IMG/VR virus record: IMGVR_UViG_3300021963_005683
Span: 6,078-70,077 of that record
Direction: 5' to 3' (one strand)
From: a virus
DNA: 64,000 bases
This document shows positions 13,855 to 34,195 of the stretch, piece after piece. The position numbers and the translations under genes are program-made. Below the pieces are notes generated by a model, which was not told where the DNA came from, did no database searches, and was given only the letters and a program-made list of their open reading frames with translations. How positions within the stretch are numbered: position 1 is the stretch's first letter; the number at the start of each line of letters is the position of its first letter.

Positions 13855-14695
13855 ATGCTGCTATTAGTTTATCTACAACTTGAATTTGAGTGTAGTTGTG
13901 TAATACTTTCATCATTCCATTATGTGCAATTCTTTCTCTCTCCTCTTCATTTTCATTGTAGTAATTCATCTTCTCTATACAATCAAACATCTCATCGTAA
14001 TATATGATATCTTCCCCATCGATAAACATTTCTGATAACCCAGTTTCATTTGATAATCTATCAGTTATAACCAATTTACCACAAGCCATTCCTTCAAAAA
14101 TTCTACGAGTAATTTCTTTCCATCTACTATTTTGAATAACCATTAATCCACTATTCAAAAATTCAGTATGCTGTTGTGCATTCAGTCCATTCCTATTTCC
14201 AACCGAACCTTCAGCCCATTCGGTTAAGTAATCTAAAAATGTAGAATTACCAATTCCTCTAGTTGTAACTGCTACATATTTTGATTCAGAATTCATAGGA
14301 AATTGAACGGCTGTATCTGCAAAGTGGTTTATCCATTCAGAATTTATACCCATTTTTATATATGCTTCCGCACATTGTTTATCAGGTGTTATTGTAAAGT
14401 GGAATCTATTTGCTTTTGGTGAATTTCTTTCAAAGTTTTGAGGGTCATCTCCACTCTCTTGTATCCAAAATGCAGGAACTAAATCTTTATTAAGATATTG
14501 TGAATCAAATCTACCCCAATCCATAAACAATACAATATCAGTTTGTGGTTTGGAATCTACCCAATTCTTTAAGTCGGCATCGTTTGTTTTGATTATTTGA
14601 GTTTCCCACCCTCTTTCTTTGAATTCATTTAAGAGTGCTAATGGCGTAGACCATTGCTCTCCATTTTTATAATCGTATATGAATGTTATTTTCAT
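13832..14695 (-). CDS. Glycosyltransferase (CgeB-like GT-B)
   Basis: RIFEGMACG.LVITD and ERERIA.NG...V...YT. Confidence 0.8.
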   Translation of the reverse strand: MKITFIYDYKNGEQWSTPLALLNEFKERGWETQIIKTNDADLKNWVDSKPQTDIVLFMDWGRFDSQYLNKDLVPAFWIQESGDDPQNFERNSPKANRFHFTITPDKQCAEAYIKMGINSEWINHFADTAVQFPMNSESKYVAVTTRGIGNSTFLDYLTEWAEGSVGNRNGLNAQQHTEFLNSGLMVIQNSRWKEITRRIFEGMACGKLVITDRLSNETGLSEMFIDGEDIIYYDEMFDCIEKMNYYNENEEERERIAHNGMMKVLHNYTQIQVVDKLIAAYEKNRHN

Positions 14696-15327
14696 TGTCT
14701 ATAATTTGTTTCGTCAAAATTAATTAGATAATGGTTTTCACCTTCTCTGTTATATGATGAATATGGTTTCCAATCTATTCCGTTTTGGATATAATCCACT
14801 TCAGCATTAAATCTATTTCGTTTTACCCCATCCATTTCTATTGTTTTCAAATAAGATGCTTTTGCCCACCAAAAATTACCAGAATATAATTTCCATTTTC
14901 CAGCTGTCCCCAATAATACTCCACATGTGTTATATGAAGTTTTTTCAAAAATTTTAAAAACATTCTTACACTTTTCAACGTTAAAGTAATTCATAAGATG
15001 TCTCCAAGTTATTACATTTTCTGAATTTTGTTTAGAAGCACCTTTCGTATGAAGATACAAAATATAATCGGAATCTCCAAATTTTTCCTTATCTTTTTCT
15101 ATTAAATCTAATGTAACAAACTCATTTGCTCTAGCTCTTACATCTTTTAAATCTGATATATTAAATAAACTAAGTATATTGATAAGTGATGTATTATCAT
15201 TTGCAATTGAAATACCTATATTTAATTTATATGGAAAATCAAAATTGGCTTTTATCAATTCCAATTGTTCTTTAACTATCGCATCAACGCCTTCTATTGC
15301 ATATATGTGATAATAAATGTGTACCAT
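14692..15327 (-). CDS. Putative glycan-modifying enzyme
   Basis: YLHTKG and YSGNFWWA motifs typical of viral GT-cluster proteins. Confidence 0.5.
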   Translation of the reverse strand: MVHIYYHIYAIEGVDAIVKEQLELIKANFDFPYKLNIGISIANDNTSLINILSLFNISDLKDVRARANEFVTLDLIEKDKEKFGDSDYILYLHTKGASKQNSENVITWRHLMNYFNVEKCKNVFKIFEKTSYNTCGVLLGTAGKWKLYSGNFWWAKASYLKTIEMDGVKRNRFNAEVDYIQNGIDWKPYSSYNREGENHYLINFDETNYRQ

Positions 15328-15953
15328 TATAAAGTATCGTAGTAGTTATTTTGCTTTTCTTGTCTTTCAATTGCTTTTGGATGGATAATACAATATAATT
15401 CTTCTATTGGAAAATTTGTATAATTCTCATATCCACCAATTCGTTCGTGTACTTTCCCATTCCATCCAATTTGCTCTGGTTTATTTTTGTAAATACGAGT
15501 CTGAACATCGGGGAAGTTTACCCAACCTTTTTCATTTACATTCCATCCCCATTTTTTAATATGTGCTTCAGTTAATCCTTCAACTGTATTAATGCGTGGA
15601 ACTACTATTAGGTCTTTATCACTATTAGCTTCTAATAATGCTTCTAAATTTACAATCAAATCAGGTGTAAGATATTCATCTGCATCCAACTGAAATATCC
15701 ACTCACCTTTACATTGTGAATTTAAAAAGTTTTTCCATTGTGCAAAATCATTATCAAATTCGGATTCAATGAGAGTAATATGGTCTGCATTTGCTTGCAA
15801 TTCCAAATACTCTACCAATTCAGTAGGAGCTTTGGGTGTATCCAATAGAACTACTATTTCAGAATTTTCTTCTTTGTAGTTTAATAACTGATTAACCAAA
15901 CGAATGGTTTCTTCGACTTCATTACAAGCCGTTATTGCGTAACTTAATTTCAT
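15327..15953 (-). CDS. Glycosyltransferase family 2
   Basis: WIFQLDADE, W.GKVHE. Confidence 0.85.
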   Translation of the reverse strand: MKLSYAITACNEVEETIRLVNQLLNYKEENSEIVVLLDTPKAPTELVEYLELQANADHITLIESEFDNDFAQWKNFLNSQCKGEWIFQLDADEYLTPDLIVNLEALLEANSDKDLIVVPRINTVEGLTEAHIKKWGWNVNEKGWVNFPDVQTRIYKNKPEQIGWNGKVHERIGGYENYTNFPIEELYCIIHPKAIERQEKQNNYYDTL

Positions 15954-16785
15954 CTATATAACTTTTTAATTTATCTGTTGGTTTCCAATTTAAACGTTCA
16001 ATCGCATCATTATTTAATCTTAATGTTTTTCGATAATTACCCTTTACATCATTTACATATTTTATATTTGGGTAACTAAACATATCAGCCAATTCATTTA
16101 ATGAGTAATTACAACCTGTTCCTAATTCCCAAGCATCTTCATGCTTTTCATCGGTTTCAGCAATTCTAATTAACCCATCAACAATATCATCTATATGTGT
16201 GAAATCTCTTCTTTGTTCACCATCGCCATGTATTAGAATTGGTTCTTCTTTTGATATAGCATTTCTCCATATACCAATAACAGCTGCCATATTACTATCT
16301 ACCAACTCACCTGGACCATATACATTATAAAATCTAGCTATCTCCGCATTCAAACTATATACCCCCTTAAACATCTTTATCCATTCTTCTCCCATATGCT
16401 TTGTTAGTGCGTATGGTGATAGCATTGGATTATGATGACGGGATGATGAACCTGCGTAAATCAATTTGGATTTATTTCGATATGCATATTCAGTAACTTG
16501 CTTTGTACCATCTACATTACAACTAAACGTTAATGTAGGATTCTGAAATGATGGTTGTATTCTACTTAATGCTGCCAAATGAAATATATAATCATATGGG
16601 GTATTTTTGATATTATCCATACTTCTAATATCTCCACCTAAAAAATTTACAAATGGTGATATTTTTGCTTCAGCTCCAATTGAAAGATTATCAATTACAT
16701 CTACTTCATACTTTCTTTTAAGCAATTCCAATGATAGTGCATATCCTACAAATCCCGCTCCTCCCGTAACTAATACTTTTTTCAT
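15922..16785 (-). CDS. NAD-dependent epimerase/dehydratase
   Basis: VTGGAGFVG, YALTK (YxxxK), RFYNVYGP, GDGEQRRDF. Confidence 0.92.
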   Translation of the reverse strand: MKKVLVTGGAGFVGYALSLELLKRKYEVDVIDNLSIGAEAKISPFVNFLGGDIRSMDNIKNTPYDYIFHLAALSRIQPSFQNPTLTFSCNVDGTKQVTEYAYRNKSKLIYAGSSSRHHNPMLSPYALTKHMGEEWIKMFKGVYSLNAEIARFYNVYGPGELVDSNMAAVIGIWRNAISKEEPILIHGDGEQRRDFTHIDDIVDGLIRIAETDEKHEDAWELGTGCNYSLNELADMFSYPNIKYVNDVKGNYRKTLRLNNDAIERLNWKPTDKLKSYIDEIKLRNNGL

Positions 16786-17162
16786 TAATCTTCGTTGTGG
16801 GGTTTATTGGTTGTATAACTAAGGGTACTACCACTTGGATACCCATACGCAGTATTTGTTACAAATTGTGGTGTTGCGTATGTAATAGAACCACCACCTG
16901 GTGTTGTTGTTATTGTTCCAGATGAACCACTACCACAATAAACTTCGTATGGTCTATGTGGATATGTGGGTGATGGTGTAATATGTGGCAATGTTTGTAT
17001 TGGTGCAGTATTTGGAACTCCAAATGGAAATCCTATTGGGGGTTCATCCTTAACCTCCGCCAATTTATCTTTTAATAAATCCCATTGCTTTGGGGTAATG
17101 TTAAATTCATGTACTCCGTCTGTAAATCCTTTTAACCAAAGGACAAATTCTTTTGATGTCAT
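16785..17162 (-). CDS. Hypothetical protein, Pro/Thr-rich C-terminus
   Basis: MT..EFV.WLKGF N-terminus; packed in the operon. Confidence 0.6.
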   Translation of the reverse strand: MTSKEFVLWLKGFTDGVHEFNITPKQWDLLKDKLAEVKDEPPIGFPFGVPNTAPIQTLPHITPSPTYPHRPYEVYCGSGSSGTITTTPGGGSITYATPQFVTNTAYGYPSGSTLSYTTNKPHNED

Positions 17163-17164
17163 TT

Positions 17165-17635
17165 TTATCTACCTTTTAATTGTGAACGTTTATCTATGCC
17201 TGTAACATTCATATTCTTTGGAGTTATCTCATTTACATCCATAGTTAACTCTATAACTTTAGTTACTCCACTTATTTTATAAGTCCTATATGCATCATTT
17301 GTAATTATAGGAACTTTTGAAACAATTTGTTCATATATTTTTTTTGCTCCACCTCTCATTTGAAGTTTTTCAGTATCTTCATTTACAAATTTACCGAAGA
17401 ACTTCTTAATTAAGTTTGGATTAACATTTGATACTTTTACACAATGTATTATATCCTTTGGTTGCGATACAAATAGTGTAAATATTATAGGAGCAGTTGT
17501 TTCTGTAAATCTGCCTTTTATACCATCCACATAAACGTATTCTTTTATTAAATAAAACTTACCTCTAGCCATTTTATTGGCACTTATTGCATTTTTATCA
17601 TCAATTGATTTACGATATATAGGATTATAATTCAT
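17165..17635 (-). CDS. Hypothetical protein
   Basis: 156-aa ORF in the operon. Confidence 0.6.
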   Translation of the reverse strand: MNYNPIYRKSIDDKNAISANKMARGKFYLIKEYVYVDGIKGRFTETTAPIIFTLFVSQPKDIIHCVKVSNVNPNLIKKFFGKFVNEDTEKLQMRGGAKKIYEQIVSKVPIITNDAYRTYKISGVTKVIELTMDVNEITPKNMNVTGIDKRSQLKGR

Positions 17636-17636
17636 A

Positions 17637-18905
17637 TTATTTATTTAATGATTTTAATTTGGGTAATTGAAGTTGTTGAAACTTTGGTTGTATCTTAGTA
17701 TAAATACCATATTGATTTAGAATACCATCGAATCCTTCTGTCATTTTTGATAAACTAAATGTTGCTAAATTATGCTTACCCAACTTAGCTGATTCGGATT
17801 TATACTTATCGTAGTTCTTATAAACATCCTTAATGATTGGTAATGCCTTTGAAACATTTATATTGAACCATTTTGCCTCTTTTAATAAGAATTGGTCTGC
17901 AGCTGATTCGTGTACTTCTTTTAACTCTCCCTCCAATAATACCGCACCTTGTTTTAAGAAATCGATATGCCCACTCCAATTAGATACAATTACAGGCTTA
18001 CCCGTCAAACTGAATTCCAATAGGGGTCTACCAAACCCTTCACCCTTTGTAAAATTCAACATTGCTTTTACTTTTTTATGTTCATATAATCCATTCATTT
18101 CGGATGGAGTTAAATCGCCATGTAAAAGATAAACCGGAACTGATTTATAGTCTTTTCCTAATACTTCTCTAATTTTTTTAATAGTAGTTTCTCTATCTAT
18201 TACGCTAAATCCTGCTGATGATGTTTTAAGAACTAATGCTGGCTTTACTTTTTCGTTTTTGAATGCCATTGCGAATGTCTTAATCATCATCCCCACATTC
18301 TTTCTATCTTCGCCTAAATCACCTCTTAACCAATGTCCTACAAATAAGAATGCAAAATCTTCTTTGATTGCATCTAATTCACTAATATGTGCAATTGTTT
18401 CAGTCCCGAAATCAAATTCATCAAATCCTTCAAAAAGAATCTCAACTGGTTTTTGAATCCTATGTTGTACTATTAATTGGCCGGTTGTTTTATCAGCTTC
18501 ATTATAAACCGTATCTACTAAACTCTTTTTTGAATGTTCTGATGGAACTATAATTAAATCCATTCTATTACAACCATGTATCCAATCTAATGGAGAATGG
18601 GTTGTTTCGATTGCTGCAGTAATACCAATGTTATAGTTACCCAATGGTTGGAATTCGTTTGGTACAGTAACCTGAATATAAATATCTGGCTTTTGTTGAA
18701 TGCTTGGTATGATATTATCTACTACCCATTTATGAAATGGTTTATCATAATTAAGAGCATCCATTGGAGTTTGTCCCCAACGAGTACTAATAACTTTGAT
18801 TTCAAATTTATCTAATTTATAAAGAGAATGTAATAAATCTCTTGCGTGGTCACCATACCCACTTCTCGTTGCTACCGGTGCTTGAAATACTAATGTTGGT
18901 TTCAT
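17637..18905 (-). CDS. Glycosyltransferase family 4 (GT-B)
   Basis: SGYG, RKNV, KGEGFGRPLLE, WSGH.DF. Confidence 0.88.
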   Translation of the reverse strand: MKPTLVFQAPVATRSGYGDHARDLLHSLYKLDKFEIKVISTRWGQTPMDALNYDKPFHKWVVDNIIPSIQQKPDIYIQVTVPNEFQPLGNYNIGITAAIETTHSPLDWIHGCNRMDLIIVPSEHSKKSLVDTVYNEADKTTGQLIVQHRIQKPVEILFEGFDEFDFGTETIAHISELDAIKEDFAFLFVGHWLRGDLGEDRKNVGMMIKTFAMAFKNEKVKPALVLKTSSAGFSVIDRETTIKKIREVLGKDYKSVPVYLLHGDLTPSEMNGLYEHKKVKAMLNFTKGEGFGRPLLEFSLTGKPVIVSNWSGHIDFLKQGAVLLEGELKEVHESAADQFLLKEAKWFNINVSKALPIIKDVYKNYDKYKSESAKLGKHNLATFSLSKMTEGFDGILNQYGIYTKIQPKFQQLQLPKLKSLNK

Positions 18906-18906
18906 A

Positions 18907-20286
18907 TTATAACTCTATTAACTTAAATTTTTGTTTTGGTTTCCAATTTGCAAATGCTCCTTCCATACCTTCAACTAATGAATCACACATTGCTTCCTTA
19001 CTCAATTTTCCTTCTCCTATGAAATGTTTTCTACCTTTTAGTCCTGCTGCTTTTCTTTCCTCTCTACCTATCATATACCAATCCATAATTAAAGGAGCAA
19101 TATCTTCAAAATCAAGTCTATCATCAAAAATATATGGAGTAGGAACTGAACCTGTTGTTGAACGAACCGGCCAAATTGGTTTAACCCAATCTCCCCAAAC
19201 TACACCTGCTTTTTTATGTCTATCATGTAACGAACCAATTTCAACATAATCTTCTGCAGTTAGTAATTTACCCGTTCCTTTATCTCTAAACCCACATTGG
19301 TCTTGCATACCACCTGATACATTTAGTATAATTGGTGTACCCGCCATTACTGATTCTGCAGTTGCTAATCCAAATCCTTCGTTTGATGCTACATTGATTG
19401 TTACATCAGCTATATTATATAGATAGTTTAATTCTTGCTCCGTATATTTGTTGGGTGCAAATATAATATTTGCTTCCGGAATACAATGTTCTATAAATGT
19501 AGGTAAATCCGTACCATGCTCTTCAACAGGTTGGGTATGCATTACCATACAAATCTTATCTCGTTTATCTTCAGGCAATGCCTCTCTAAATTTATCAAAT
19601 GCCAACATAGCATCCATTGGTTGTTTTCTACGAATATTTCTATTATTCCAATATAGAACAAATTCATATTCTTTATCACCAAATATACTTTGTTTAAATT
19701 CTTTTGGAACTTCTACCGGCTTATATAAATCAGAATTAATACCATGTGGTACATAGCTTACTTGCCAATCTGCAGGTTTAGTCCAATGTTTTTCTTTATC
19801 CCAACCCCACACTCTACGGGTAATACCATAAGTTTGTTTTGAAATACATCCAATCCAATCGCAACTTTCGTAGTAATTTCTATTATATTTTGGGTCTGGT
19901 AAATCATCCCAAATATGATAAAAGAAAAGAGGAACTGATTGGCGAATTTCATGCTCAATCTCATATAACCACAACCAATATCTCGGGTCGGTAAAATGTA
20001 GAATTGCATCAGGTTTTTCAACCATTAATAACTGACGAATAATATCAGGGTTACCATATCCATCCGATGGATAGATTTTAACACTTGCATCTTTTACGCC
20101 GGTTTGTTCTCTAACACTATCATTTAAATCTAAAATTTTCCCTGCTTCGGGATGTTTAATTGCTGCACCTAATTGAACCCAATCGTACTTATCCAATGTA
20201 CCTAATACTAATTGTTTAGATACATTAGCTATACCACTCGTCATTCTAAGGTCATCCGAAAGTAACAGAATCTTCTTTTTTGCCAT
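18907..20286 (-). CDS. Glycosyltransferase family 4 (GT-B)
   Basis: NRNIRRK, NEGFGLATAES..AGTP. Confidence 0.88.
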   Translation of the reverse strand: MAKKKILLLSDDLRMTSGIANVSKQLVLGTLDKYDWVQLGAAIKHPEAGKILDLNDSVREQTGVKDASVKIYPSDGYGNPDIIRQLLMVEKPDAILHFTDPRYWLWLYEIEHEIRQSVPLFFYHIWDDLPDPKYNRNYYESCDWIGCISKQTYGITRRVWGWDKEKHWTKPADWQVSYVPHGINSDLYKPVEVPKEFKQSIFGDKEYEFVLYWNNRNIRRKQPMDAMLAFDKFREALPEDKRDKICMVMHTQPVEEHGTDLPTFIEHCIPEANIIFAPNKYTEQELNYLYNIADVTINVASNEGFGLATAESVMAGTPIILNVSGGMQDQCGFRDKGTGKLLTAEDYVEIGSLHDRHKKAGVVWGDWVKPIWPVRSTTGSVPTPYIFDDRLDFEDIAPLIMDWYMIGREERKAAGLKGRKHFIGEGKLSKEAMCDSLVEGMEGAFANWKPKQKFKLIEL

Positions 20287-24584: not shown

Positions 24585-27146
24585 TTAAAATGAGAAAAAC
24601 TTTTTCGCAGTTAGGGATTCGGTTGAAGCTTTCTGCCATTTAAGTGCGGTATAGAAGTCATCAACCTTATTTTCCATATCCGATGCATATAATTTATCTC
24701 TATCAATATATTGTTCTACGAAATCCATAATTTCTTTTGGGTCATTATAATCCTTAAACGCCACCGTATCTAATCCCAATGGATTATTTTTAAGATATAC
24801 CCATTTAACCTTATCACCATCTCTAATTGGTTCGTGCTTATATGGTGCATTAAAGAATTTCAATAATCGATTATAAGTAATTCCAGCTTTAACGTGCGCT
24901 GGAGTTCCTTTCTCAAAAGATGCAATTGATAACCCACTATCTTTTCTCCAAGTACCATTATCATATTTACTTAACTCTTTGATTGCTCCACCCTTTGCTA
25001 TCTTATTAACCGGTAAATTAATCATACTAGCTTTAAATGCCAATAACTTTGTATCAACATACTCATTATCTTTACCCATAAGGATATCTTTCAACATACC
25101 ACTCATTTGGTCCTGAAATGCTTTTGGAAAAGATGAACGAACTACATCCAATCCTTTAACATCTAACTTATCGCAAGGGATACCATTCTTCAATACCATC
25201 CATTGTGCATATCGTTTCTTAGCTACCCAAAATCCTGCTTTAGAGATAAATTCTTTTTTAATCTCAAATCTATGCTTCTCTTTTGGAATAAAAAAGAATC
25301 TTTCAGCCAACATATCATAGAATGAGTTTAAGAATGTTTGTGTTTCGGTTGCAATATTATCCACCTCAACTGCCATTCTCTTTTCATCGAATGTCTTATA
25401 ATCTGGGTATCTATGTTTTACCAATGGTTCTGCCATCATATAGATTGAATCCGTATCAATATAAACATTGTAGTCATCGGTTGTTCCTAATTCTTTCCAA
25501 TATTTTCTATTTGCCATCTCCGCTGTTTTCTTAATAACAGTTTGACCCGTAACCGTAACTGCCTCTGCATTATCAATATCGTAAAACCGAAAGGCAGGAA
25601 GGCCAAGAACACCATACATAGAATTAAGAAGAATCTTCTGAACCAACTGCCTTTTAGCATAAAAGTCATATTTCTCCGTATCACCCGCTTCACCATATTG
25701 TTTTTCTAATTTTCTGAACTCAACACGTTTTTCAAACCAATCATTTAAAATATCAGCGATAAGACCCTTCTTATCCTGTGTATATAGAACCCCATTTGCC
25801 GCAACACCTAAATTACTATCTTTGATAACTTCCTTCAGTTCCTGAGTCGTATATGAGTACTCACCGCCATCCTTACCCACTAACTTATATGTCGTATCTA
25901 ATCCTTTAATATTAGCCTCTGCATCCCAATTTTCAATCTTACCAACTTTTGTTTCGGGACTGATATTTAGGGTCATAATGATTGATGGATATAGGGATGT
26001 TAAATCCAAATCATAAATCCAATCATACTTACCAACGATGGGTTCTTTTACATATGCCCCAATAAACTTCTCTTGGTTGTTATCCCTAAGAGCCTGCATT
26101 CTTTCTTTCCTATCTCGTGGTTTATTAGTTGCTACCAATCCTTTCTTTTTAAGATATCCTAAACAAGCTCCTTCTAACCACTTTGATGAATAAATGTAAT
26201 CTTCATATGGTACATATCCAGCGTGACAAACGGCTCTACATAATTCAATAAATTGAAGTTTATCATCCATCGATACAACTAAGTCCACATCGACAATGTT
26301 ATACTCAATAAACTTTTCCAAATCATTTTCGAATAAATCATCTAAACTTCCTTCGTACTCAATCTTACCTCTACCCAATTCTTTTGTTGAAATATAATTT
26401 AAGGTATAAGATGCTTCTAATGAATATGTGTATGTTTTATATAGGTTGATGTAATCCAAAATAGATACACCACCAAAACTAAACTTCTCTCTATATGGTG
26501 ACCAGAATGCCTGTCCTATTGGTGATAGTCTTTTAGCATGTCCTTCACCACATACATTCTTTAATCGGTTATACAAATAGGGAATATCAAAGAAATCGAT
26601 ATTCCAACCCGTTAGAATTGTTGGGTTTACTTCTTCGTAATAATTAAGGAACGCCTGTAATAGATTTCTTTCGTTATCGAATATGTGAAGAGTAACTTCT
26701 CTACCATCTTTGTTAAAGTTTTTGGCTTTATTCTTAACCTTACGTTCTTTATCTAATACAAATACATCATACAGCTTTGTTGCTCCATCGTGTGCAGCAA
26801 TGGCCGTAATTTCATTCTTTGCATCTTTTGTGTTTGGTAGACCTGATATCATTTCTACCTCAATATCGAAGGTAAGAACCCTATGTCCTTTTGATGGTAA
26901 ATCGTTATCGTATATATCTACTAAAACTCTCGTTGTTTCGGGAACATCTGATTCAAATAAATCTTCAGCATCTTCCTTTTCCCATTTACCAACTTTGGTT
27001 AATTTATCACCATACATAGAAAGGTACTCACCATGTGTATCTCGTTTATATGCATACTTTCGATATGGGAAAGTTTGATATCCACTTTTATCATCCCATA
27101 GATGAATCAAATTCTTTTGCCTTTCGTAATAAATATTTTGATACAT
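24585..27146 (-). CDS. DNA polymerase family B (gp43-like)
   Basis: Exo DIE and GWNIDFFD; pol DLTSLYPS, KILLNSMYG, YIDTDS, KKRY. Confidence 0.97.
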   Translation of the reverse strand: MYQNIYYERQKNLIHLWDDKSGYQTFPYRKYAYKRDTHGEYLSMYGDKLTKVGKWEKEDAEDLFESDVPETTRVLVDIYDNDLPSKGHRVLTFDIEVEMISGLPNTKDAKNEITAIAAHDGATKLYDVFVLDKERKVKNKAKNFNKDGREVTLHIFDNERNLLQAFLNYYEEVNPTILTGWNIDFFDIPYLYNRLKNVCGEGHAKRLSPIGQAFWSPYREKFSFGGVSILDYINLYKTYTYSLEASYTLNYISTKELGRGKIEYEGSLDDLFENDLEKFIEYNIVDVDLVVSMDDKLQFIELCRAVCHAGYVPYEDYIYSSKWLEGACLGYLKKKGLVATNKPRDRKERMQALRDNNQEKFIGAYVKEPIVGKYDWIYDLDLTSLYPSIIMTLNISPETKVGKIENWDAEANIKGLDTTYKLVGKDGGEYSYTTQELKEVIKDSNLGVAANGVLYTQDKKGLIADILNDWFEKRVEFRKLEKQYGEAGDTEKYDFYAKRQLVQKILLNSMYGVLGLPAFRFYDIDNAEAVTVTGQTVIKKTAEMANRKYWKELGTTDDYNVYIDTDSIYMMAEPLVKHRYPDYKTFDEKRMAVEVDNIATETQTFLNSFYDMLAERFFFIPKEKHRFEIKKEFISKAGFWVAKKRYAQWMVLKNGIPCDKLDVKGLDVVRSSFPKAFQDQMSGMLKDILMGKDNEYVDTKLLAFKASMINLPVNKIAKGGAIKELSKYDNGTWRKDSGLSIASFEKGTPAHVKAGITYNRLLKFFNAPYKHEPIRDGDKVKWVYLKNNPLGLDTVAFKDYNDPKEIMDFVEQYIDRDKLYASDMENKVDDFYTALKWQKASTESLTAKKFFSF

Positions 27147-28261
27147 TATCCTCTTAGTTTTTCGTTTAATATTTTAATCATCCTACTATCATTTTCAGAT
27201 AGCTTCTTTGCTCTCTCAATTGCTTTATTAGATAATTCTAATCTATGATTTTCATCATCTAATATTTTATCTAACATATTAAACAAATCCTTTTTATATT
27301 TAAAAAATAGTCCATCTGGCTCTATTTCTTTATAACAATCTGATTCCTGAAATATCATAGGAGTACCATTCATCATACAATCGGTAGCTGCTACACTCCA
27401 ACCATAGTTTGTCTGCCTCATTTGAATTCCAACCGAACATGATTGTAATTTTTTATAATAATCATGCTTAGCTACTTTGGTATTATCAACCCAACTAAAT
27501 TCAGGCTTACCATCTAATTGCGGCACCCAAACTTTGAAATCTTGTCTACGTCCTCTATATTCTTCCATCAACTTAATAAAAGATGGATATCCTTTATATG
27601 CAGCCGCCCTATGATTGAATACAATAACTTTTTCTTTTGGTTTAGGTGATTCGATAATTTTTGTAACATCTATTCCTAAATTCCACACTACTAATATACT
27701 ACTTAATTTTTGAATAAACAAATCATTGAACCATAATTTTGCTTCTTCTAAAACTCTATCTTTTTGTTCTTGCGTATTTAAAAAGCAAGTTTCCATTTGA
27801 GATACCCCCAATAGTTCAATCGGCATCCATCTCCATTTGTTTTTTCTATCTTCCGCATTGCAAGATTTCATTTCCCACCAATGGCAGTATCCAATTACAT
27901 TGGTTTTGAAATCGTTCTTATATCTACCAACTTGCGGCCAATCGGGCAAATGTGAATATATTACATCATATTCTAATGTTTCCAACAAACGATTCATATC
28001 GGGTGGATATGTTCTCATTTTAATCATATCACCTGAAAATTGAAGTATATGTTGCTTTACATTTATTAGATTTAATTTCTTAACGGGTTGTGGTAATATA
28101 ATATTCCAAAAGAATTCTCCATGCGATTCCAATGATTTTATATGATTGTATATAACATCTACAAAAGAATCCTTTTCAATATTGGAAGAGTTGGTGATAT
28201 TAGGTATCACCAACACTTTCCTTGCTTTATTGTATTCTACACTTTCCCAAAATATACTCAT
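27146..28261 (-). CDS. GT-B glycosyltransferase translationally coupled to PolB
   Basis: FNHR...KG and WSVAATDCMMNGTP; stop overlaps the PolB ATG. Confidence 0.75.
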   Translation of the reverse strand: MSIFWESVEYNKARKVLVIPNITNSSNIEKDSFVDVIYNHIKSLESHGEFFWNIILPQPVKKLNLINVKQHILQFSGDMIKMRTYPPDMNRLLETLEYDVIYSHLPDWPQVGRYKNDFKTNVIGYCHWWEMKSCNAEDRKNKWRWMPIELLGVSQMETCFLNTQEQKDRVLEEAKLWFNDLFIQKLSSILVVWNLGIDVTKIIESPKPKEKVIVFNHRAAAYKGYPSFIKLMEEYRGRRQDFKVWVPQLDGKPEFSWVDNTKVAKHDYYKKLQSCSVGIQMRQTNYGWSVAATDCMMNGTPMIFQESDCYKEIEPDGLFFKYKKDLFNMLDKILDDENHRLELSNKAIERAKKLSENDSRMIKILNEKLRG

Positions 28262-28262
28262 A

Positions 28263-29822
28263 TTATATTGATAAAACTTTTCCTATTTTTTTAATTTGTT
28301 CAGCGCTTAATCTACCGCTTTTATTTTGTAAAGCTTTAACCAATTCATCATAGTTCATACCAGATGATTTATCTCCATTACAATCCGAACATAGAATTTG
28401 TAAATTATCTTTATCAGTTTTACCATCTCCTTTTACAGGAACAATATGGTCAGCTTCTATTTCACTTCTAGTTATTTCTTTATCACATCCTAAACATTTA
28501 TAATCTTGTTCAGCCCATACTTCCCAAACATCTTGCTCTACGAATTTACCTCTCACTTCGCCAATACTTACACCAAATTTATCTAAATCAAATGCAGCTT
28601 GTACGTGTAGTAAAATGAATTCATAGTCATCAATACGAGTACCACCACTAAATACTTTAGTAGCCGGGTAAGGAATAGCATCTATATCTTTATTCTTAGT
28701 ACCATTTTTTACAACTACTTTACCATTTACTAATTCGTATCGTTGGTATTCAAGATGTTTCTCTTTGATAGAAGCAACTACTTTATCAAATTCAGTAACA
28801 AACGTTTTATAATCTATACTTAGTTTCTTCTTCGAATAAGTTGCTAATAACCATCTAAAGAACATACTATACTTTAATAATCTATGTACACCCCAATAAT
28901 TTTTACCATATCCTTTTATACCCGTATGTTCTATAACCATATCATTTAACATTTTTAAAATGGTTTTAGCTTCTTTTGAATATTTACCATCTAATGTAAA
29001 TTTGGATAATCCATTCTCACTATCTCTTTCATCCTGAATATACAATGTATTCCAAGCATTGTTATCACCCTCTCTCCAAGTATCACCTAAATAAATTTGG
29101 TGTATCAAAGCGGTTACAAACGCATCGGTTTCTCTTTTAATGCATGCCATTGATACATATTCCATTTTACCACCATTAAATGTGTTAAAAATCTTATATG
29201 GCGAATAATCAACTGCTCCTAACTTTCTACATAAATGAGCAATTTCAGCATTATATGCATTTCTTCTTTCAGCTGATGTAACTATATTTAAGTTATTCAA
29301 CGTAACAAACTTTGCTCTAGCTTCCTTATCACTCATATTACTATATCTTACAACAAAGAAATAGTTATTATCCATTAAGTATTTAGCAAGGTCGTCATGG
29401 TCAAATTGAATTGTATCCCAAGTCTTTCCACCTAAATCATATACACCACCTTTCCATTCAAAACTAAATCCGTTTGGAGTTTTAAGTAATCCTTTAAAGA
29501 AATTAAGAATAGTTCGAGTTCTATGTCCACCATCTATAATCTCCCATTTTTTCTTAGTAAGGTTATATCGGTGATGGATTGGTTGAATAAACTTACCTGT
29601 TAGAAATGCTACGATAAGAGCTTTTTGCCACTCATCGCCATAGTAACCCGGTTTTCCATCTAACTTAGTGTAAGGTCTTTGATATTCAGGAGATTTATCC
29701 AAAGTGTTTGAATTCTCCATTGCTAACATTTCAGTACCAGAAATGAAGCGAGGTTCGGTGTCAGCATCTATTCGATTTTGAGATAGTGCATCATTGACAA
29801 CTTTTAATTGTAATGTTTCCAT
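28263..29822 (-). CDS. DUF262 plus HNH nuclease (GmrSD-like)
   Basis: PEYQR, IIDGGHR and FVTLN (DUF262 motifs); CLGC..EADHIVP..G.T..DNLQILCSDCN (intact HNH). Confidence 0.85.
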   Translation of the reverse strand: METLQLKVVNDALSQNRIDADTEPRFISGTEMLAMENSNTLDKSPEYQRPYTKLDGKPGYYGDEWQKALIVAFLTGKFIQPIHHRYNLTKKKWEIIDGGHRTRTILNFFKGLLKTPNGFSFEWKGGVYDLGGKTWDTIQFDHDDLAKYLMDNNYFFVVRYSNMSDKEARAKFVTLNNLNIVTSAERRNAYNAEIAHLCRKLGAVDYSPYKIFNTFNGGKMEYVSMACIKRETDAFVTALIHQIYLGDTWREGDNNAWNTLYIQDERDSENGLSKFTLDGKYSKEAKTILKMLNDMVIEHTGIKGYGKNYWGVHRLLKYSMFFRWLLATYSKKKLSIDYKTFVTEFDKVVASIKEKHLEYQRYELVNGKVVVKNGTKNKDIDAIPYPATKVFSGGTRIDDYEFILLHVQAAFDLDKFGVSIGEVRGKFVEQDVWEVWAEQDYKCLGCDKEITRSEIEADHIVPVKGDGKTDKDNLQILCSDCNGDKSSGMNYDELVKALQNKSGRLSAEQIKKIGKVLSI

Positions 29823-29923
29823 TGTGTTTTTGCAATTTTAGGCTCTATGCTTGAGTTTTTGATAAAATTTATCCGCCTCTTTTTTGGGGCTACAGCGGTG
29901 TTTCCCTCAATTTTGTTTATATA

Positions 29924-29955
29924 CAAATATACTAACAATATTCCAAATTACCAAA
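29924..29955 (-). promoter_or_regulatory. Bacteroidota-type promoter of the DUF262-HNH gene
   Basis: TTTG-N20-TATATTTG. Confidence 0.7.
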
Positions 29956-29996
29956 TAATTAGGGATATTTTATATAACAGGTTGATAATCAATATG

Positions 29997-31223
29997 TTAT
30001 CTACCCACCTCTTTTAAATATGCTTCTTGCATTTGCTCCCACGTCATACCAATTGCATCAACGTAGAATAATACTTCGGGTTTGATTCTACCCTCATCGT
30101 GTAGTTTTGTATATCGTTTGATGGCTTTATCCTTCCACCACTTAGTGGTATATTCGTTTCCTTTTGCAAACTTTTCATTAAGAATTAAATCCTTTTCTTC
30201 GATGTTTGATTTTAAAAACTCATTACCATTTTGGTATATTGGTGCAAAATATACACCTCTTTGAAATCCGTGGTCGTAAGCGTTTCCTTTGATTCCTAAT
30301 TCTTTGAAAATTGCCTGAATAATCTTTTGTTTAATTCCACTTACAGGTCCGTTCTTTTCGTATCCCATATTAGCACCATTACGTTCTCTCTCATCCATAA
30401 TGTGCGTCTTATACCATTCCGAACGATTTTCTTTAATCCATTGATGCCAAGGATTATAAACTGAATCATCTGGCTTTGTAGAAATCTTACCTTTGGATTC
30501 TCCTAATGTTTTGAAATGTGGAATACCATTATATTGTGAATGAATACCATATAAAGATGTAGTTCCTACTCCAACTAATGGATTATCATATTTAGTTTTC
30601 CAATATGCTCTAACTTCGGGTGCGGTTGCTAATGCTGCGATTAACTTACCACCTAAAAAATTATAACCAAATGGTTGCGTAGATACAATCGTTGTAGCAA
30701 TAGATGTACAATTTAATTTACCTTTTTCAAACTTATCTTCTTTACTCCAACCAATATATTCATCTCTAACGCCTAATGATGTAATATCAGACCCCAAACA
30801 TATTTGTCCTAATATCTTTCCACTAACTCTATCCTTAACATATATTTTTACGTTTCTGCCAGGATTTGCCGAAAATTCCATAGTATGTATTAACTTACGG
30901 ATTTCAGTCCAACGAGTAGATTCTTTTGGGTCATCTTCAACGATTTCCACATAAGGTTCTAATTGCTCTATTTCAGAAATAGTTAATTCCTTATTATTAA
31001 TATCAGCTGGCTTCCACAATGAATCGTAGTATGATTGTAATGCAGGCAATCTCTTCATATTAGAAACTCTATCAGCATTCCATTCAATCCACTTCTTATA
31101 TAAAGTTTGTTGCTCTACTGACATTTCTTTAAGATAGTCCAAATTTTCAATGAACTTTCTTTTCATCACATCATAATCAAATGTGGTTGTGTTTGTTTCT
31201 TCGCCTGTGTTCCAAAATTTCAT
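29997..31223 (-). CDS. DUF4338/Druantia DruA-like protein
   Basis: PGRN, RD..IGW, PFGYNFLGGKLIAAL, TTSLYG..SQYN, LGESKG, H..RGVY. Confidence 0.75.
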   Translation of the reverse strand: MKFWNTGEETNTTTFDYDVMKRKFIENLDYLKEMSVEQQTLYKKWIEWNADRVSNMKRLPALQSYYDSLWKPADINNKELTISEIEQLEPYVEIVEDDPKESTRWTEIRKLIHTMEFSANPGRNVKIYVKDRVSGKILGQICLGSDITSLGVRDEYIGWSKEDKFEKGKLNCTSIATTIVSTQPFGYNFLGGKLIAALATAPEVRAYWKTKYDNPLVGVGTTSLYGIHSQYNGIPHFKTLGESKGKISTKPDDSVYNPWHQWIKENRSEWYKTHIMDERERNGANMGYEKNGPVSGIKQKIIQAIFKELGIKGNAYDHGFQRGVYFAPIYQNGNEFLKSNIEEKDLILNEKFAKGNEYTTKWWKDKAIKRYTKLHDEGRIKPEVLFYVDAIGMTWEQMQEAYLKEVGR

Positions 31224-31227
31224 ATTA

Positions 31228-31259
31228 CAAATATAACTAATTAATTTTAAATTACCAAA
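31228..31259 (-). promoter_or_regulatory. Bacteroidota-type promoter
   Basis: TTTG-N20-TATATTTG, 4 nt before the ATG. Confidence 0.7.
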
Positions 31260-32055
31260 ATTTGGTATCTATTTCTGATTCAGGTGCAATTGTTTCCCAC
31301 ATCTGAATATCTTTATTGAACGCTCGTGTATCTTTTGGATATGGTCTGATTTCGTGTTTGAACGTTTTCATAATTGCTTTCTTTTCTTTCTTATCAGCCG
31401 TAACAATTTGAAGATATCTATGTTTTGGTGGCTCTTCTCTTCTCCAAAATTGCTTATATCCATCCTTACCAATTTCTCTACGAAGATGTTCTAAATTACC
31501 ACTACCCCACTTTGTAAACACAGTCCTACTATGAATCCATTTATAAGGGTCATTTGATAAAGATATTCCATAATTTGGCATTAGGGCTATATCAGTATTT
31601 AACCCCTGATAAATCCAATTTGTTGCTTGGTAAATACCACCTAAATGTTCTTGCCCATTATCTGCATAAGAAATAAGTGCTTTAATAGCCTTATCGTTTT
31701 CTCTAAACCATTTGAATGATTGTCCCATTGCGTATGATTCAATATTAGAGCCATATCCATCATCACAATATAAACGAGTCAATTCTAATACATTATCTTT
31801 TGTAAGTAAATCTGAAATAGAAGTTGCTGCCCTTGCCCCAACGGGAAATCCATAAACTAAACATCCAATTAATTTATTATCTTCACCTAATGCATTACTT
31901 TCATCCATTTTATAAAAAATACCTAAAGCATATCTACAAGCTGTCCAAGCGTGTGTGTAGTGCTTCTTTACGATAATATCTTTTGCTACATCTTTGGTGA
32001 TTGGTGCAATATATACTTTGGATGTATCGCAATAATTTTTGCCTTCTTCTTTCAT
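31252..32055 (-). CDS. Mom-like DNA-modifying GNAT protein, paralog 1
   Basis: HY, LELTRL, NIES, ISYAD...H.G.IYQATNWIYQG, KHRY. Confidence 0.8.
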   Translation of the reverse strand: MKEEGKNYCDTSKVYIAPITKDVAKDIIVKKHYTHAWTACRYALGIFYKMDESNALGEDNKLIGCLVYGFPVGARAATSISDLLTKDNVLELTRLYCDDGYGSNIESYAMGQSFKWFRENDKAIKALISYADNGQEHLGGIYQATNWIYQGLNTDIALMPNYGISLSNDPYKWIHSRTVFTKWGSGNLEHLRREIGKDGYKQFWRREEPPKHRYLQIVTADKKEKKAIMKTFKHEIRPYPKDTRAFNKDIQMWETIAPESEIDTKFW

Positions 32056-32059
32056 AACT

Positions 32060-32815
32060 TTATTTTATTGGCTCTAATTTGAGTATCTCCTCCACAAATT
32101 CAACATTTAATTTTGGATATGGTAGAGATGGGTATTTTAATGATTTAAATAATTTCTTCTTTTCTTTTCCATGCAATAGTATGTAAACATATCTATGTTT
32201 GCGTGGTTCTTTTTTAATCCAAAATGGCGATGTAACCATTGTCTGAATTATCTTTGGGTCGTTTGTTCCATACTTAACATATGAAGTTCTACTATGATGC
32301 CATTCATCAATCTCACTCCATTTGAAACTCCAACTATCGTTTGGTCTGATTCGATTTCCCTGATATATCCAATTAGTTGCTTGATAAACAGTTCCTAAAT
32401 GTCCAACTTTTGGGTCTGAATATGATACCAATGCTTTAATGTGTGGTGCATTTTCTCTTAACCAATTGAAAGTTTGTCCTACAAACCAACTCTCAATATT
32501 ACTACCATATCCATCAAATACAAATAAACGGGTAAGTTCTAAAACTTCCGTTCTATCTAATGTTTCGGATATAGATGCGCCGGAATGTCTACCAATCGGG
32601 TCACCATAACAGGCAACTCCAATAAGTTGTTCGTTTACGCCACCAAAAAATTTATGTTCATCGTTTGATATATAAAATAAACCAATAGCATAAGATACTT
32701 TTGTCCATATACCACTATAATGGTTATTAATAATAATATCTTTTGCTATATCTTTACTTACTAATCTTATCGAAAGTTTAGATATATCACAATAATCTTT
32801 TCCTTCTATTTTCAT
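32060..32815 (-). CDS. Mom-like DNA-modifying GNAT protein, paralog 2
   Basis: HYS, LELTRL, NIES, VSYSDP..GH.GTVYQATNWIYQG, KHRY, PYPK. Confidence 0.8.
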   Translation of the reverse strand: MKIEGKDYCDISKLSIRLVSKDIAKDIIINNHYSGIWTKVSYAIGLFYISNDEHKFFGGVNEQLIGVACYGDPIGRHSGASISETLDRTEVLELTRLFVFDGYGSNIESWFVGQTFNWLRENAPHIKALVSYSDPKVGHLGTVYQATNWIYQGNRIRPNDSWSFKWSEIDEWHHSRTSYVKYGTNDPKIIQTMVTSPFWIKKEPRKHRYVYILLHGKEKKKLFKSLKYPSLPYPKLNVEFVEEILKLEPIK

Positions 32816-32819
32816 GTAA

Positions 32820-32978
32820 CTATTTTACCCAATCATTGAATGCTTCTTCAAAGGCAGATACTCTATCTCTCTTAGGATTTTCCTCCATAAGTTTTTTAGC
32901 ATCATCTAATACCTCTCTCCACAATCCATATGAATCGGCTTCTAATAGAATTTCTTCGATTTGTTCTTCGGCGCTCAT
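32820..32978 (-). CDS. Small acidic hypothetical protein, 52 aa
   Basis: Manual translation MSAEEQIEEILLEADSYGLWREVLDDAKKLMEENPKRDRVSAFEEAFNDWVK; fills the gap exactly. Confidence 0.65.
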   Translation of the reverse strand: MSAEEQIEEILLEADSYGLWREVLDDAKKLMEENPKRDRVSAFEEAFNDWVK

Positions 32979-32981
32979 AAC

Positions 32982-33179
32982 TTATTGCTTTTCATATGGC
33001 CACTTAATCATATGTGTCCATGTTTGGTTTGTAACTATTTTCTTAATGTTAGCAGAAGATACTCGGTAGTTTCTAGCAATAACATTGATATTTCTATGAC
33101 CTACTCTATATAGTTCTCTGATTTGCAGTATCTGCTCTTCAGTTAGTTTGTGCATTGGATGCGCTTCTCCTCTTAACAT
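32982..33179 (-). CDS. Stand-alone HTH DNA-binding protein (resembles the C-terminal domain of phage HNH homing endonucleases)
   Basis: RGEAHPMHKLTEEQILQIR...IARNYRVS..NI..I...TW.H. Confidence 0.65.
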   Translation of the reverse strand: MLRGEAHPMHKLTEEQILQIRELYRVGHRNINVIARNYRVSSANIKKIVTNQTWTHMIKWPYEKQ

Positions 33180-33219
33180 ACGTCTAATATAACACTTTTT
33201 TTTGAGAATCACAAATATT

Positions 33220-33483
33220 TTACTTTAAATTTTCGTTTATAGCGTTAATATATGCCATTTTTGATGATACTCCTGTAAATCTTTCAACTTCTTCACCATC
33301 TTTTTCAATGATTACCGTTGGAACTGAACGAACGCCATACTTAGTTGCTTCTTCGTAGGCTTCATCCACATCATACTCTTCAAATTTAACATTTGAAAAT
33401 TGTGTTTTTACTTCATTCATTACCGGAGCTAATGCTCTACACGGCCCACACCATACTGCACTAAATTTTTTAACTGTTACCAT
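33220..33483 (-). CDS. trxA: Thioredoxin
   Basis: WCGPC, VRSVPT. Confidence 0.93.
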   Translation of the reverse strand: MVTVKKFSAVWCGPCRALAPVMNEVKTQFSNVKFEEYDVDEAYEEATKYGVRSVPTVIIEKDGEEVERFTGVSSKMAYINAINENLK

Positions 33484-34195
33484 TTGTTTTGTTTTTAAAA
33501 TCATCATATGCATCCAATAATGCGTCTACAACCGGATGTCTATGATTGGTTAATAATGTTTGTGAATCCATATCCTTAATCTTTTTTGCTGCCGTTACTA
33601 AGAATTTAAATCCACTATCTCCTCTATATTTCAAATCTACCTGTTGTGTATCGCCACACACAACCATTTTACTTCGTAATCCCAAACGAGATGTAATCAT
33701 TTCCATTTGGTCGTTTGTACAATTCTGAGCTTCATCTACTATAATGAATGCATCTAAAAATGTTCTACCTCTCATAAATGCAAGGGGTACAATTTCTACT
33801 TGTCCACTTTCTAAAATTTTATCAATCTTTTCTTTGTTATAAAGTTGATAAAAGTTGGAATAGATTGGTTGCATCCAAGGCTCCATTTTCTCTCTTAAAT
33901 CACCAGGTAAAAATCCAATTTCTTCTTTACTTACCGTTGGACGAGTTATGATGATTTTGTTTACCGTCTTTTTAAATAACATATCTAATGCTACCTGACA
34001 AGCTAATAGTGTTTTACCACTACCGGCTTTACCACTTAGGATTGTTATGGCGTTATTTAGAATCTTTTCCTTAGCTTCCTTTTGCTCCTCATTTAATTGT
34101 AATTGGAATTTAATAGGGCCTTTCGGATAGTCGATTTTTTCTTCTCTAATTTTCTCTGTCAATTCTTTATGTTTTGTTGATTGATTATCCGCCAT
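33470..34195 (-). CDS. phoH: PhoH-family ATPase
   Basis: GKAGSGKT, GFLPGDL.EK, MRGRTF, DEAQN, GD..Q.D. Confidence 0.95.
   Translation of the reverse strand: MADNQSTKHKELTEKIREEKIDYPKGPIKFQLQLNEEQKEAKEKILNNAITILSGKAGSGKTLLACQVALDMLFKKTVNKIIITRPTVSKEEIGFLPGDLREKMEPWMQPIYSNFYQLYNKEKIDKILESGQVEIVPLAFMRGRTFLDAFIIVDEAQNCTNDQMEMITSRLGLRSKMVVCGDTQQVDLKYRGDSGFKFLVTAAKKIKDMDSQTLLTNHRHPVVDALLDAYDDFKNKTNGNS

Follow-up and report, generated by a model that had tools for sequence, protein, structure and literature searches.

A candidate DNA-modification island with two Mom paralogs, a DruA-family protein and a glycosyltransferase beside the DNA polymerase gene of an uncultured phage

Introduction

For a long time Mom stood as a single-gene oddity of phage Mu; the transfer RNA (tRNA)-dependent chemistry of the enzyme was not published until 2026. 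The DNA described here is a stretch of 64,000 nucleotides, termed the window, from IMG/VR virus record IMGVR_UViG_3300021963_005683 (positions 6,078 to 70,077), and it makes up most of that 70,077-base virus contig. Directly upstream of its gene for a family B DNA polymerase (PolB), the window carries two Mom-like genes, a gene for a DruA-family protein, a gene for a nuclease with DUF262 and HNH domains, and a gene for a GT-B glycosyltransferase (GT). In related phages the two Mom genes, the DruA-like gene and the GT gene are inherited together, and the nuclease occupies a slot whose content varies from phage to phage. These genes are discussed below as a possible DNA-modification island with an optional nuclease.

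The locus and its phage clade

The window has a GC content of about 0.32, and nearly all of its genes lie on the minus strand. An open reading frame (ORF) check places five contiguous minus-strand ORFs at 27146-32815, between the ribonucleotide reductase (RNR)/thioredoxin block and PolB, exactly where an earlier note on this DNA had put them. The features of the island and its borders are listed here from the upstream boundary to PolB.

33220-33513, minus strand: thioredoxin (PF00085, E-value 5.1e-21)
32982-33212, minus strand: 76-amino-acid ORF (ORF76), which with thioredoxin forms the upstream boundary of the island
32060-32815, minus strand: Mom1, 251 amino acids (PF25680, phrog_1384)
31252-32055, minus strand: Mom2, 267 amino acids (PF25680)
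29997-31223, minus strand: DruA/DUF4338-family protein, 408 amino acids (PF14236)
29823-29996, minus strand: leader of the nuclease insert, 174 nucleotides
28263-29822, minus strand: nuclease with DUF262 (ParB-like, GmrSD_N) and HNH domains, 519 amino acids (PF03235 and PF01844)
27146-28261, minus strand: GT-B (GT4-like) glycosyltransferase, 371 amino acids (structure matches; Pfam matches below threshold)
24585-27146, minus strand: PolB, the anchor for finding relatives (PF00136, PF03104)

The stop codon of the GT gene overlaps the PolB start in the sequence TAATG. Upstream of the island lie the genes for thioredoxin, PhoH and the large and small subunits of RNR (36000-33220), and the thioredoxin and ORF76 genes are conserved upstream of Mom1 and Mom2 in relatives. 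A promoter and terminator scan of 26900-33600 was uninformative, with 35 promoter-like sites where 39.6 were expected and 2 terminator-like sites where 2.7 were expected. ARAGORN found 0 tRNA genes in the window, and Rfam gave no tRNA-like match at E-value <=10 in 26900-33600 or at E-value <=1 window-wide, and none at gathering score; a miniature tRNA missed by such models could escape these scans.

The 5.7-kilobase (kb) region had no blastn match in 50,697 isolate phage records. The best isolate match to PolB is that of Microcystis phage Mel-JY01 (49.5%), followed by T4-like cyanophages at about 32%. In IMG/VR there are 494 PolB relatives, of which the best 80 are 83-99% identical, and complete relatives measure 195-266 kb. 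The clade to which the locus belongs is abundant; its phages are uncultured, about 200 kb in size and distantly T4-like.

Conservation of the gene set in related phages

Presence of each gene was counted by tblastn with the window proteins (E-value <=1e-5, at least 40% query coverage). Mom matches below 50% identity, which are cross-paralog matches, were dropped, and the counts omit 16 loci that repeat a contig already counted as well as L084-L087. Among the 59 unique IMG/VR loci that span the interval from thioredoxin/ORF76 to PolB, Mom2 is the most constant member (52 loci), followed by DruA (51), Mom1 (42) and the GT (41, six of them with a 30%-identical form). The DUF262-HNH family is found in 8. 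Two of the 8 loci without DruA end inside PolB.

The genes occur in three orders, where g237 is a gene next to PolB.

Gene order 1 (that of the window): Mom1-Mom2-DruA-[slot]-GT-PolB
Gene order 2: Mom1-Mom2-[slot]-GT-PolB-g237-DruA (PolB 51-64% identical)
Gene order 3: PolB-g237-DruA-GT (PolB 70-75% identical)

In G005, which has gene order 3, the Mom pair is retained about 19 kb from DruA-GT. Among six records that are 95-100% complete, five (G001, G002, G004, G005 and G006) have Mom, DruA and GT genes, and one (G003, 100%) has none of them. Co-inheritance of the Mom pair with the DruA-like gene and the GT extends across a wide clade, with PolB identity down to about 50%. In 27 loci, duplicate contigs included, an extra ORF of 248-261 amino acids that is not in the window lies between PolB and g237 (for example L023:12564-13322), and its sole match is a weak GDSL-lipase-like one (E-value 0.0025).

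Six loci of a single lineage (PolB 83-84% identical) are without Mom1, Mom2, DruA, GT and nuclease. This lineage holds instead genes for an asparagine-synthase-like amidotransferase, a small GNAT, a DNA-methylase-like protein of about 410 amino acids, a g237 paralog and a 523-amino-acid protein with no Pfam match (L083:4451-10000; also L064, L067, L071, L073 and L074). These genes may constitute another DNA-modification set. Because different genes of this kind fill the same place, the locus behaves as an island for alternative DNA-modification genes. The same region in relatives has also received insertions of homing-type genes (GIY-YIG and NUMOD3) and DNA methylases.

The Mom paralogs

The reading of the first two genes as Mom-like paralogs is borne out by matches to PF25680 far above its cut-off of 27.1 bits (Mom1, E-value 2.2e-43, 148.7 bits; Mom2, E-value 1.7e-42, 145.8 bits), and PHROGs agrees with the call (phrog_1384 for Mom1). 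The two proteins are 46% identical. Each has orthologues across the clade, and the duplication is therefore old. Mom1 matches Mu Mom (PDB 8bv8) at E-value 2.2e-9 over residues 16-235, that is, along its whole length through the C-terminus. For Mom2 the match (E-value 2.4e-4) is limited to residues 17-153, and the C-terminal half, which has diverged, is left unaligned.

Passages of Silva et al. (2026, PMC13219725) describe how Mu Mom takes glycine from Gly-tRNAGly and attaches it to N6 of adenine in double-stranded DNA (dsDNA), after which a rearrangement gives a carbamoylmethyl adduct. According to the same passages, the enzyme acts on dsDNA after replication and needs no partner; residues H58, Y59, R111, S124, D149, R151 and Y159 are important, and a helix-turn-helix-like insertion (Mu residues ~175-209) is needed for activity. 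With Mu numbering taken as the 8bv8 chain index plus 9, an offset inferred here from the HY motif, both paralogs keep six of these seven residues, at the positions aligned to H58, Y59, R111, S124, D149 and Y159. Mom1 and Mom2 may serve different sequence contexts, use different donors or form a heterodimer.

A conserved aromatic tail (KFW, NFW, TFW or NYW; window 31252-31263) closes Mom2 and its orthologues where the alignment reaches that far, and Mom1 does not have it. The C-terminus of PolB reads KKFFSF, and such ends could be clamp-docking tags. In one relative, a gene for a RimK-type ATP-grasp ligase (PF08443, E-value 9.6e-49; L123:3547-4431) stands between Mom1 and Mom2; placed there, an amino-acid ligase could lengthen an aminoacyl mark. 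The isolate phages with Mom-like genes number 285, and neither Synechococcus nor Pelagibacter is among the ten commonest words of their names. In several Microbacterium phages (H79-H85), the Mom-like gene adjoins one annotated "ParB-like nuclease domain protein"; here too a Mom-type GNAT is paired with a ParB-like protein.

The DruA-family protein

The third gene is clearly a member of the DruA/DUF4338 family, as had been proposed (PF14236, E-value 2.1e-22, 80.1 bits against a cut-off of 27; PADLOC DruA, E-value 3.5e-20). Passages from Aravind's group (PMC10853773) already call DUF4338 a GNAT domain. The AlphaFold model, built from a 40-sequence alignment, has a pLDDT (predicted local distance difference test) score of 90.8 and contains a GNAT-fold core at about residues 84-339 with helical extensions at the N- and C-termini. 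A VIA-align search of 48,161 chains with this model returned Mu Mom (8bv8_B) as the top match (Z 9.8, root-mean-square deviation 3.8, 168 residues, model residues 84-339), followed by AAC(6')-Ib (Z 8.6) and many GNATs, including FemA, at Z 7-8.4. There were 220 chains at Z>=5, and all of the 50 listed have an acyltransferase fold. Foldseek found nothing for the model in the PDB at E-value <=0.001, and its weak matches are all acetyltransferases. By its model the DruA-like protein is a GNAT, with Mom narrowly ahead as the closest solved structure. For the DruA-like protein, the fold check suggested in the earlier note came out in favor of a GNAT fold. A complex prediction for the DruA-like protein with Mom2 scored 0.00 and gave no answer, which is evidence neither way.

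The family is large, with 3135 homologues in 1069 clusters at 50% identity, and its glycine, arginine and serine positions are strongly conserved in a manner typical of enzymes. Longer members are fused to ParB_N, UDG-superfamily, DUF3102, LAGLIDADG or SegE-type GIY-YIG domains, the last with NUMOD3 (P0246, P0260, P0271, P0381, P0358 and P0263). Judged from these domain architectures, fusion to DNA-handling domains fits a DNA-directed enzyme, although the LAGLIDADG and GIY-YIG cases may be endonuclease insertions. DruA-family genes are found in 31 isolate records, which by first name word are Synechococcus (25), Pelagibacter (3), Marine (2) and Cyanophage (1).

No biochemical function for DruA was found in published papers. 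In passages of the Phold preprint, the DruA-like proteins of six Synechococcus phages are given no assigned function. This, together with family membership only, would leave room for a counter-defence decoy, that is, a copied Druantia component that poisons the Druantia system of the host. Such a role is barely plausible for a family of this size and diversity with enzyme-typical conservation and with fusions to nucleic-acid domains. DruA-like proteins are also present in phages of SAR11 bacteria, hosts that are poor in defence systems.

The glycosyltransferase

Sequence profiles place the GT only loosely, with sub-threshold Pfam matches to the GT1 and GT4 families (at most 23.8 bits, where the cut-off is 25). 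The AlphaFold model of the protein has a pLDDT of 73, with residues 282-321 below 50. Foldseek returned 457 PDB matches at E-value <=0.001, the best being MshA (E-value 2.6e-9, template modeling (TM) score up to 0.62), and MshA, PimA, BshA and PglA match at E-values of 1e-9 to 1e-6. These matches uphold the GT-B assignment made for this gene from the letters. The GT has 583 homologues, with none found by tblastn in the 50,697 isolate phage records.

In each of the three gene orders the GT is next to PolB or DruA. A distant phage (L171, a 100-kb contig) has a homologue with 36% identity, within a cluster at L171:1290-10762 that also holds a pyridoxal-phosphate enzyme, a TET-associated glycosyltransferase (TAGT, PF20691), a DUF262-HNH gene, an HD protein and three DNA-methylase-like genes. 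Judged by this gene content, the homologue sits in a predicted DNA-modification neighborhood.

The window holds a second group of sugar-related genes at 12632-20286, on the minus strand.

12632-13321, minus strand: GT2
13261-13854, minus strand: methyltransferase
13832-14695, minus strand: Glyco_trans_1_2
15327-15953, minus strand: GT2
15922-16785, minus strand: NAD-dependent epimerase/dehydratase
17637-18905, minus strand: GT1-type
18907-20286, minus strand: GT1-type

The GT1-type gene at 18907-20286 additionally matches "GT4 in conflict systems" (PF20706), slightly over the cut-off.

The nuclease and its variable slot

The nuclease combines an N-terminal DUF262 domain (PF03235, residues 36-219), which at 33.2 bits lies exactly at the cut-off of 33.2, with an HNH domain (PF01844, E-value 3.7e-11; PF14279 HNH_5 also matches). 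The C-terminus is a classical HNH, and no match to DUF1524 (GmrD) was present among the Pfam results at E-value <=0.01. The DUF262-HNH assignment of the earlier note stands, and one defining feature of GmrSD, the DUF1524 domain, is missing from these matches. The YQR and DG..R motifs and HNH residues D458, H459, N473 and N482 are invariant in the family, and from these kept residues the enzyme looks active. The family is small, with 43 homologues among 5.8 billion proteins, of which 38 have PF03235 in the precomputed Pfam column.

The content of the slot directly upstream of the GT differs even between near-identical phages. In L088, where PolB and the GT are each 99% identical to those of the window, there is no insert, and a single base separates the DruA stop from the GT start. 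Seven loci have PolB identities of at least 95%: four carry another DUF262-HNH allele, one a 680-amino-acid ORF with no Pfam match and one an s1-type ORF, and one is empty. The other DUF262-HNH allele, as in L004, is 24% identical to that of the window and has a DGQQR motif. By eye, the first ~75 nucleotides of the leader at 29823-29996 are common to the window insert and the other allele of L004, after which the two diverge; the leader is absent in L088. It has no significant RNA fold (z -0.2) and no Rfam match.

Across the 76 unique loci that span the junction upstream of the GT, this nuclease family occupies 9 slots, other genes occupy 32, and 35 are empty. The other genes are s1 (15 loci, 422-440 amino acids), s4 (5), s5 (4, with a weak HNH match) and a remainder of 8. 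The slot is always occupied wherever the upstream neighbor is Mom2. Pfam gave no clear match in 9 members of s1 and a ParB_N match in one of five s4 members (E-value 0.0029). PDB profile searches with the slot occupants gave no match, and hhalign comparisons among s1, s4 and the nuclease family were not significant. The ESM Atlas hints only weakly at a structural link of s1 with ParB proteins (TM 0.31-0.36 by query), and GIY-YIG-like and PD-(D/E)xK-like motifs in s1 and s4 are an unconfirmed reading by eye. That the other occupants are analogous ParB-like nucleases is no more than a lead. At L148:3229-4749, the slot occupant is a 506-amino-acid protein with a GHKL-type ATPase domain (HATPase_c_3, E-value 1.3e-9) and adjoins a 163-amino-acid HNH-only ORF related to the nuclease family.

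The window nuclease is 70% identical to the alleles of L163-L166, where PolB is 61%, GT 56%, DruA 67%, Mom1 79% and Mom2 74% identical. The idea that this nuclease identity exceeds that of all core genes was wrong, as it lies below the values for Mom1 and Mom2. The nuclease is nonetheless discordant with the genome tree, because the nearest relatives carry the 24%-identical allele or none. It is an exchangeable accessory, which may be functionally linked to the GT or may be a selfish endonuclease gene in a hot spot.

These results bear on the proposal of the earlier note, in which the five genes form one replication-coupled system that builds a multi-step adduct on new DNA, with a GmrSD-like nuclease as the integral self/non-self arm. 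Tight spacing on one strand and the overlap of the GT stop with the PolB start favor such a unit. So does the DruA-nuclease-GT order, which recurs in a distant phage (L167; DruA 47%, nuclease 38%, GT 35% identical), as do the GT homologues found within a few kb in 13 of the 15 loci with a full-length nuclease homologue. Fusions of Mom to restriction endonucleases have also been published (passages of PMC7824862). However, the nuclease family is absent from 67 of the 76 junction-spanning loci and from the 99%-identical relative, and its 43 homologues compare with 3135 for DruA and 583 for the GT. The GT is itself dispensable in some loci. Moreover, Mu Mom works after replication and without partners, and by our own chemical reasoning its carbamoylmethyl product offers no hydroxyl for a sugar (for the Mu properties, passages of PMC13219725). 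A single obligatory five-gene cassette is accordingly abandoned, and the five-gene system as a whole is very unlikely.

A narrower proposal is that the nuclease and the GT are a true pair, a phage-borne module resembling restriction-modification. A sugar mark, and not momylation, would protect phage DNA from the DUF262-HNH nuclease, which would degrade host or rival DNA without the mark, or else the nuclease would be type IV-like and cut the differently marked DNA of rivals. The frequent presence of a GT homologue near nuclease homologues argues for this, and six of those 13 loci have no Mom or DruA match in view (L170-L173, L175 and L177). The slot lies invariably directly upstream of the GT, the HNH catalytic residues are invariant, and the GT often occurs without the nuclease, as expected of a stand-alone modification gene. 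On the other hand, adjacency in the clade of the window may reflect a single recombination hot spot, the genes that otherwise fill the slot show no sequence relationship, and the L170-L177 loci may share one ancestor. The pair is considered distinctly improbable.

Interpretation

The favored explanation is a DNA-modification island with a core of three GNATs, the usual company of a GT, and an optional nuclease of the conflict or selfish type; it could as easily be wrong as right. It builds on what was observed, namely the identities of the domains, their folds, the co-inheritance of the genes and the variability of the slot. What we infer is every chemical step, DNA as the target of the DruA-like protein and the GT, and the substrate of the nuclease.

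In view of their homology to Mu Mom, the most likely reaction of Mom1 and Mom2 is the addition of an aminoacyl group to adenine N6 of phage dsDNA, a mark that would blunt host restriction. The paralogs differ mainly in the C-terminal, DNA-facing half and would probably serve different sequence contexts or donors. The DruA-like enzyme is probably a third acyl- or aminoacyl-transferase directed at nucleic acid. The GT, which usually travels with this core and translationally abuts PolB, plausibly adds a sugar to DNA. The nuclease stands outside the core, in a slot upstream of the GT that is variable or empty. It would most likely be either a selfish endonuclease gene or an accessory conflict nuclease, which would act in a restriction-like way on host or rival-phage DNA while the phage DNA is made immune by its own marks.

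An alternative is that these genes are neighbors and not a system. The Mom pair would then be an ordinary anti-restriction adenine modifier, the DruA-like GNAT would have an unrelated target (protein, tRNA or small molecule), the GT would belong to glycan machinery, the nuclease would be a free-standing homing-type gene, and a conserved replication module with a recombination hot spot would have grouped them. Several observations favor this alternative or otherwise weigh against a DNA-modification island. At the level of the genome, the three GNAT genes are kept without the GT in 12 of the 59 loci, and the joint loss of the set is confined to one lineage and counts as one evolutionary event. 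Synteny in a replication module can persist without common function, and homing-type genes and methylases are inserted here in relatives. G008 (80% complete) has DruA-GT and no Mom match, and is uninterpretable. Among isolates, the Pelagibacter phages Mosig and HTVC008M carry a DruA-like gene among replication and recombination genes with no Mom genome-wide, and DruA therefore does not need Mom. The GT is absent from isolates, and the Mom-bearing isolates have other common names than the DruA-bearing ones.

The proteins themselves supply further points on this side. The R151 position, essential in Mu (PMC13219725), is a K in Mom1 (V in one of six orthologues) and a G in Mom2, and the dimer residue W48 aligns to D in both paralogs. 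Mom leads the other GNATs in the comparison with the DruA-like model by a Z of just 1.2. DruA as a sequence relative of Mom was considered and rejected, as hhalign of the DruA profile (40 sequences) against the Mom profile (14 sequences) gave a probability of 0.3%; the link is by fold only. The best structural matches of the GT act on small molecules or lipids, at least six further GT or sugar genes lie in the window at 12.6-20.3 kb, and the GT may serve a glycan unrelated to DNA.

Against a chance grouping stand the all-or-none pattern across the six near-complete genomes and the retention of the members through three gene orders, even with Mom 19 kb away in G005. GT homologues occur within apparent DNA-modification neighborhoods in distant phages, and the DruA fusions involve DNA-handling domains. 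The gene-neighborhood comparison for which the earlier note had called thus upholds co-occurrence for the Mom pair, DruA and GT, with the GT missing from 12 of 59 loci, and does not do so for the nuclease (9 of 76). On this balance, a set of unrelated neighbors is rather unlikely but has to be reckoned with, and the DNA-modification island is preferred.

A bolder version of the island can also be formulated. The writers and the slot gene together would be a diversifying, phage-borne restriction-modification-like system in which the slot always holds a DNA-clamping (ParB-like) nuclease, with a nuclease fold that can be exchanged, that destroys unmarked DNA, and the DruA-family enzyme would be a DNA writer akin to Mom. 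This version is thought quite improbable.

The island is of interest for several reasons. The Mom paralogs are here a stable part of a larger writer set, in an uncultured clade with hundreds of IMG/VR contigs. If the DruA-like enzyme proves to be a DNA writer, Druantia would gain a testable hypothesis and DruA a first biochemical role, namely marking DNA. It would also point to undescribed DNA adducts, among which may be sugars and adenines with aminoacyl or acyl groups. Finally, the variable slot is a natural experiment, with near-identical phages that differ in a nuclease-type gene or have none, and allows self/non-self tests between phages.

Comparison with known systems

Phage DNA glycosyltransferases, such as the alpha- and beta-GT of T4 and the enzymes of HY126 and RB69 that make arabinosyl-5-hydroxycytosine (PMC13326640), resemble the window GT in their GT-B fold and in the location of the gene among replication genes. 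However, the best matches of the window GT are the GT4 enzymes MshA, PimA and BshA, and the HY126 enzyme (9ir0) ranks 29 among its structure matches. No hydroxymethylase or hydroxylase that could supply a base hydroxyl was seen among the Pfam-scanned ORFs of the window.

The DruA-like protein shares a clear family match with DruA of type I Druantia (PF14236 and PADLOC). Unlike in Druantia, it is phage-encoded and co-inherited with Mom and the GT, and no Dru partner genes (druB-E) are adjacent; its neighbors are Mom2 and the DUF262-HNH gene or the GT. The largest ORF of the window encodes 947 amino acids, and DruE is much larger than this.

Type IV enzymes of the GmrSD and BrxU type (DUF262 with DUF1524) share with the window nuclease an N-terminal DUF262, at cut-off here, and a C-terminal nuclease of the His-Me type. 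The window enzyme differs in its classical HNH (PF01844), in having no DUF1524 match and in being phage-borne. Its family motif is DGGHR, where the usual DUF262 motif is DGQQR.

The nuclease also resembles free-standing homing genes of T4-like phages (seg, mob). It is present or absent between near-identical genomes, lies between conserved genes near PolB and has an HNH domain, and GIY-YIG/NUMOD3 genes are inserted nearby in relatives. It differs in its length of 519 amino acids, its DUF262 NTPase-like domain, the several unrelated large genes that share one slot and the recurrent linkage to a GT in distant phages.

With regard to Mu Mom, Mom1 and Mom2 are far over the family cut-off and keep the six aligned residues, and Mu Mom is the best solved match of the DruA core. 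Unlike in Mu, the gene is represented by two diverged paralogs, neither the R151 nor the W48 position is kept, the C-terminal half of Mom2 is unaligned, and the genes adjoin the PolB region of a lytic-type phage of about 200 kb.

A published precedent is found in jumbo phages. Passages of Iyer et al. (2021, PMC7824862) describe Mom domains fused to restriction-fold endonucleases and read them as modification coupled with restriction against the host or superinfecting phages. The earlier note had not known the present combination as a described system; the joining of momylation with a restriction-type nuclease is already in print, and the unfused modular set differs from it. Both systems combine a Mom-family writer with a nuclease. 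In the window the nuclease is a separate, optional and swappable DUF262-HNH protein encoded beside the GT and not beside Mom, and a DruA-family GNAT and a GT-B accompany the Mom pair. The set in the window is an unfused modular variant of this arrangement, with two Mom paralogs, a DruA-family GNAT, a GT-B and an optional, variable nuclease slot.

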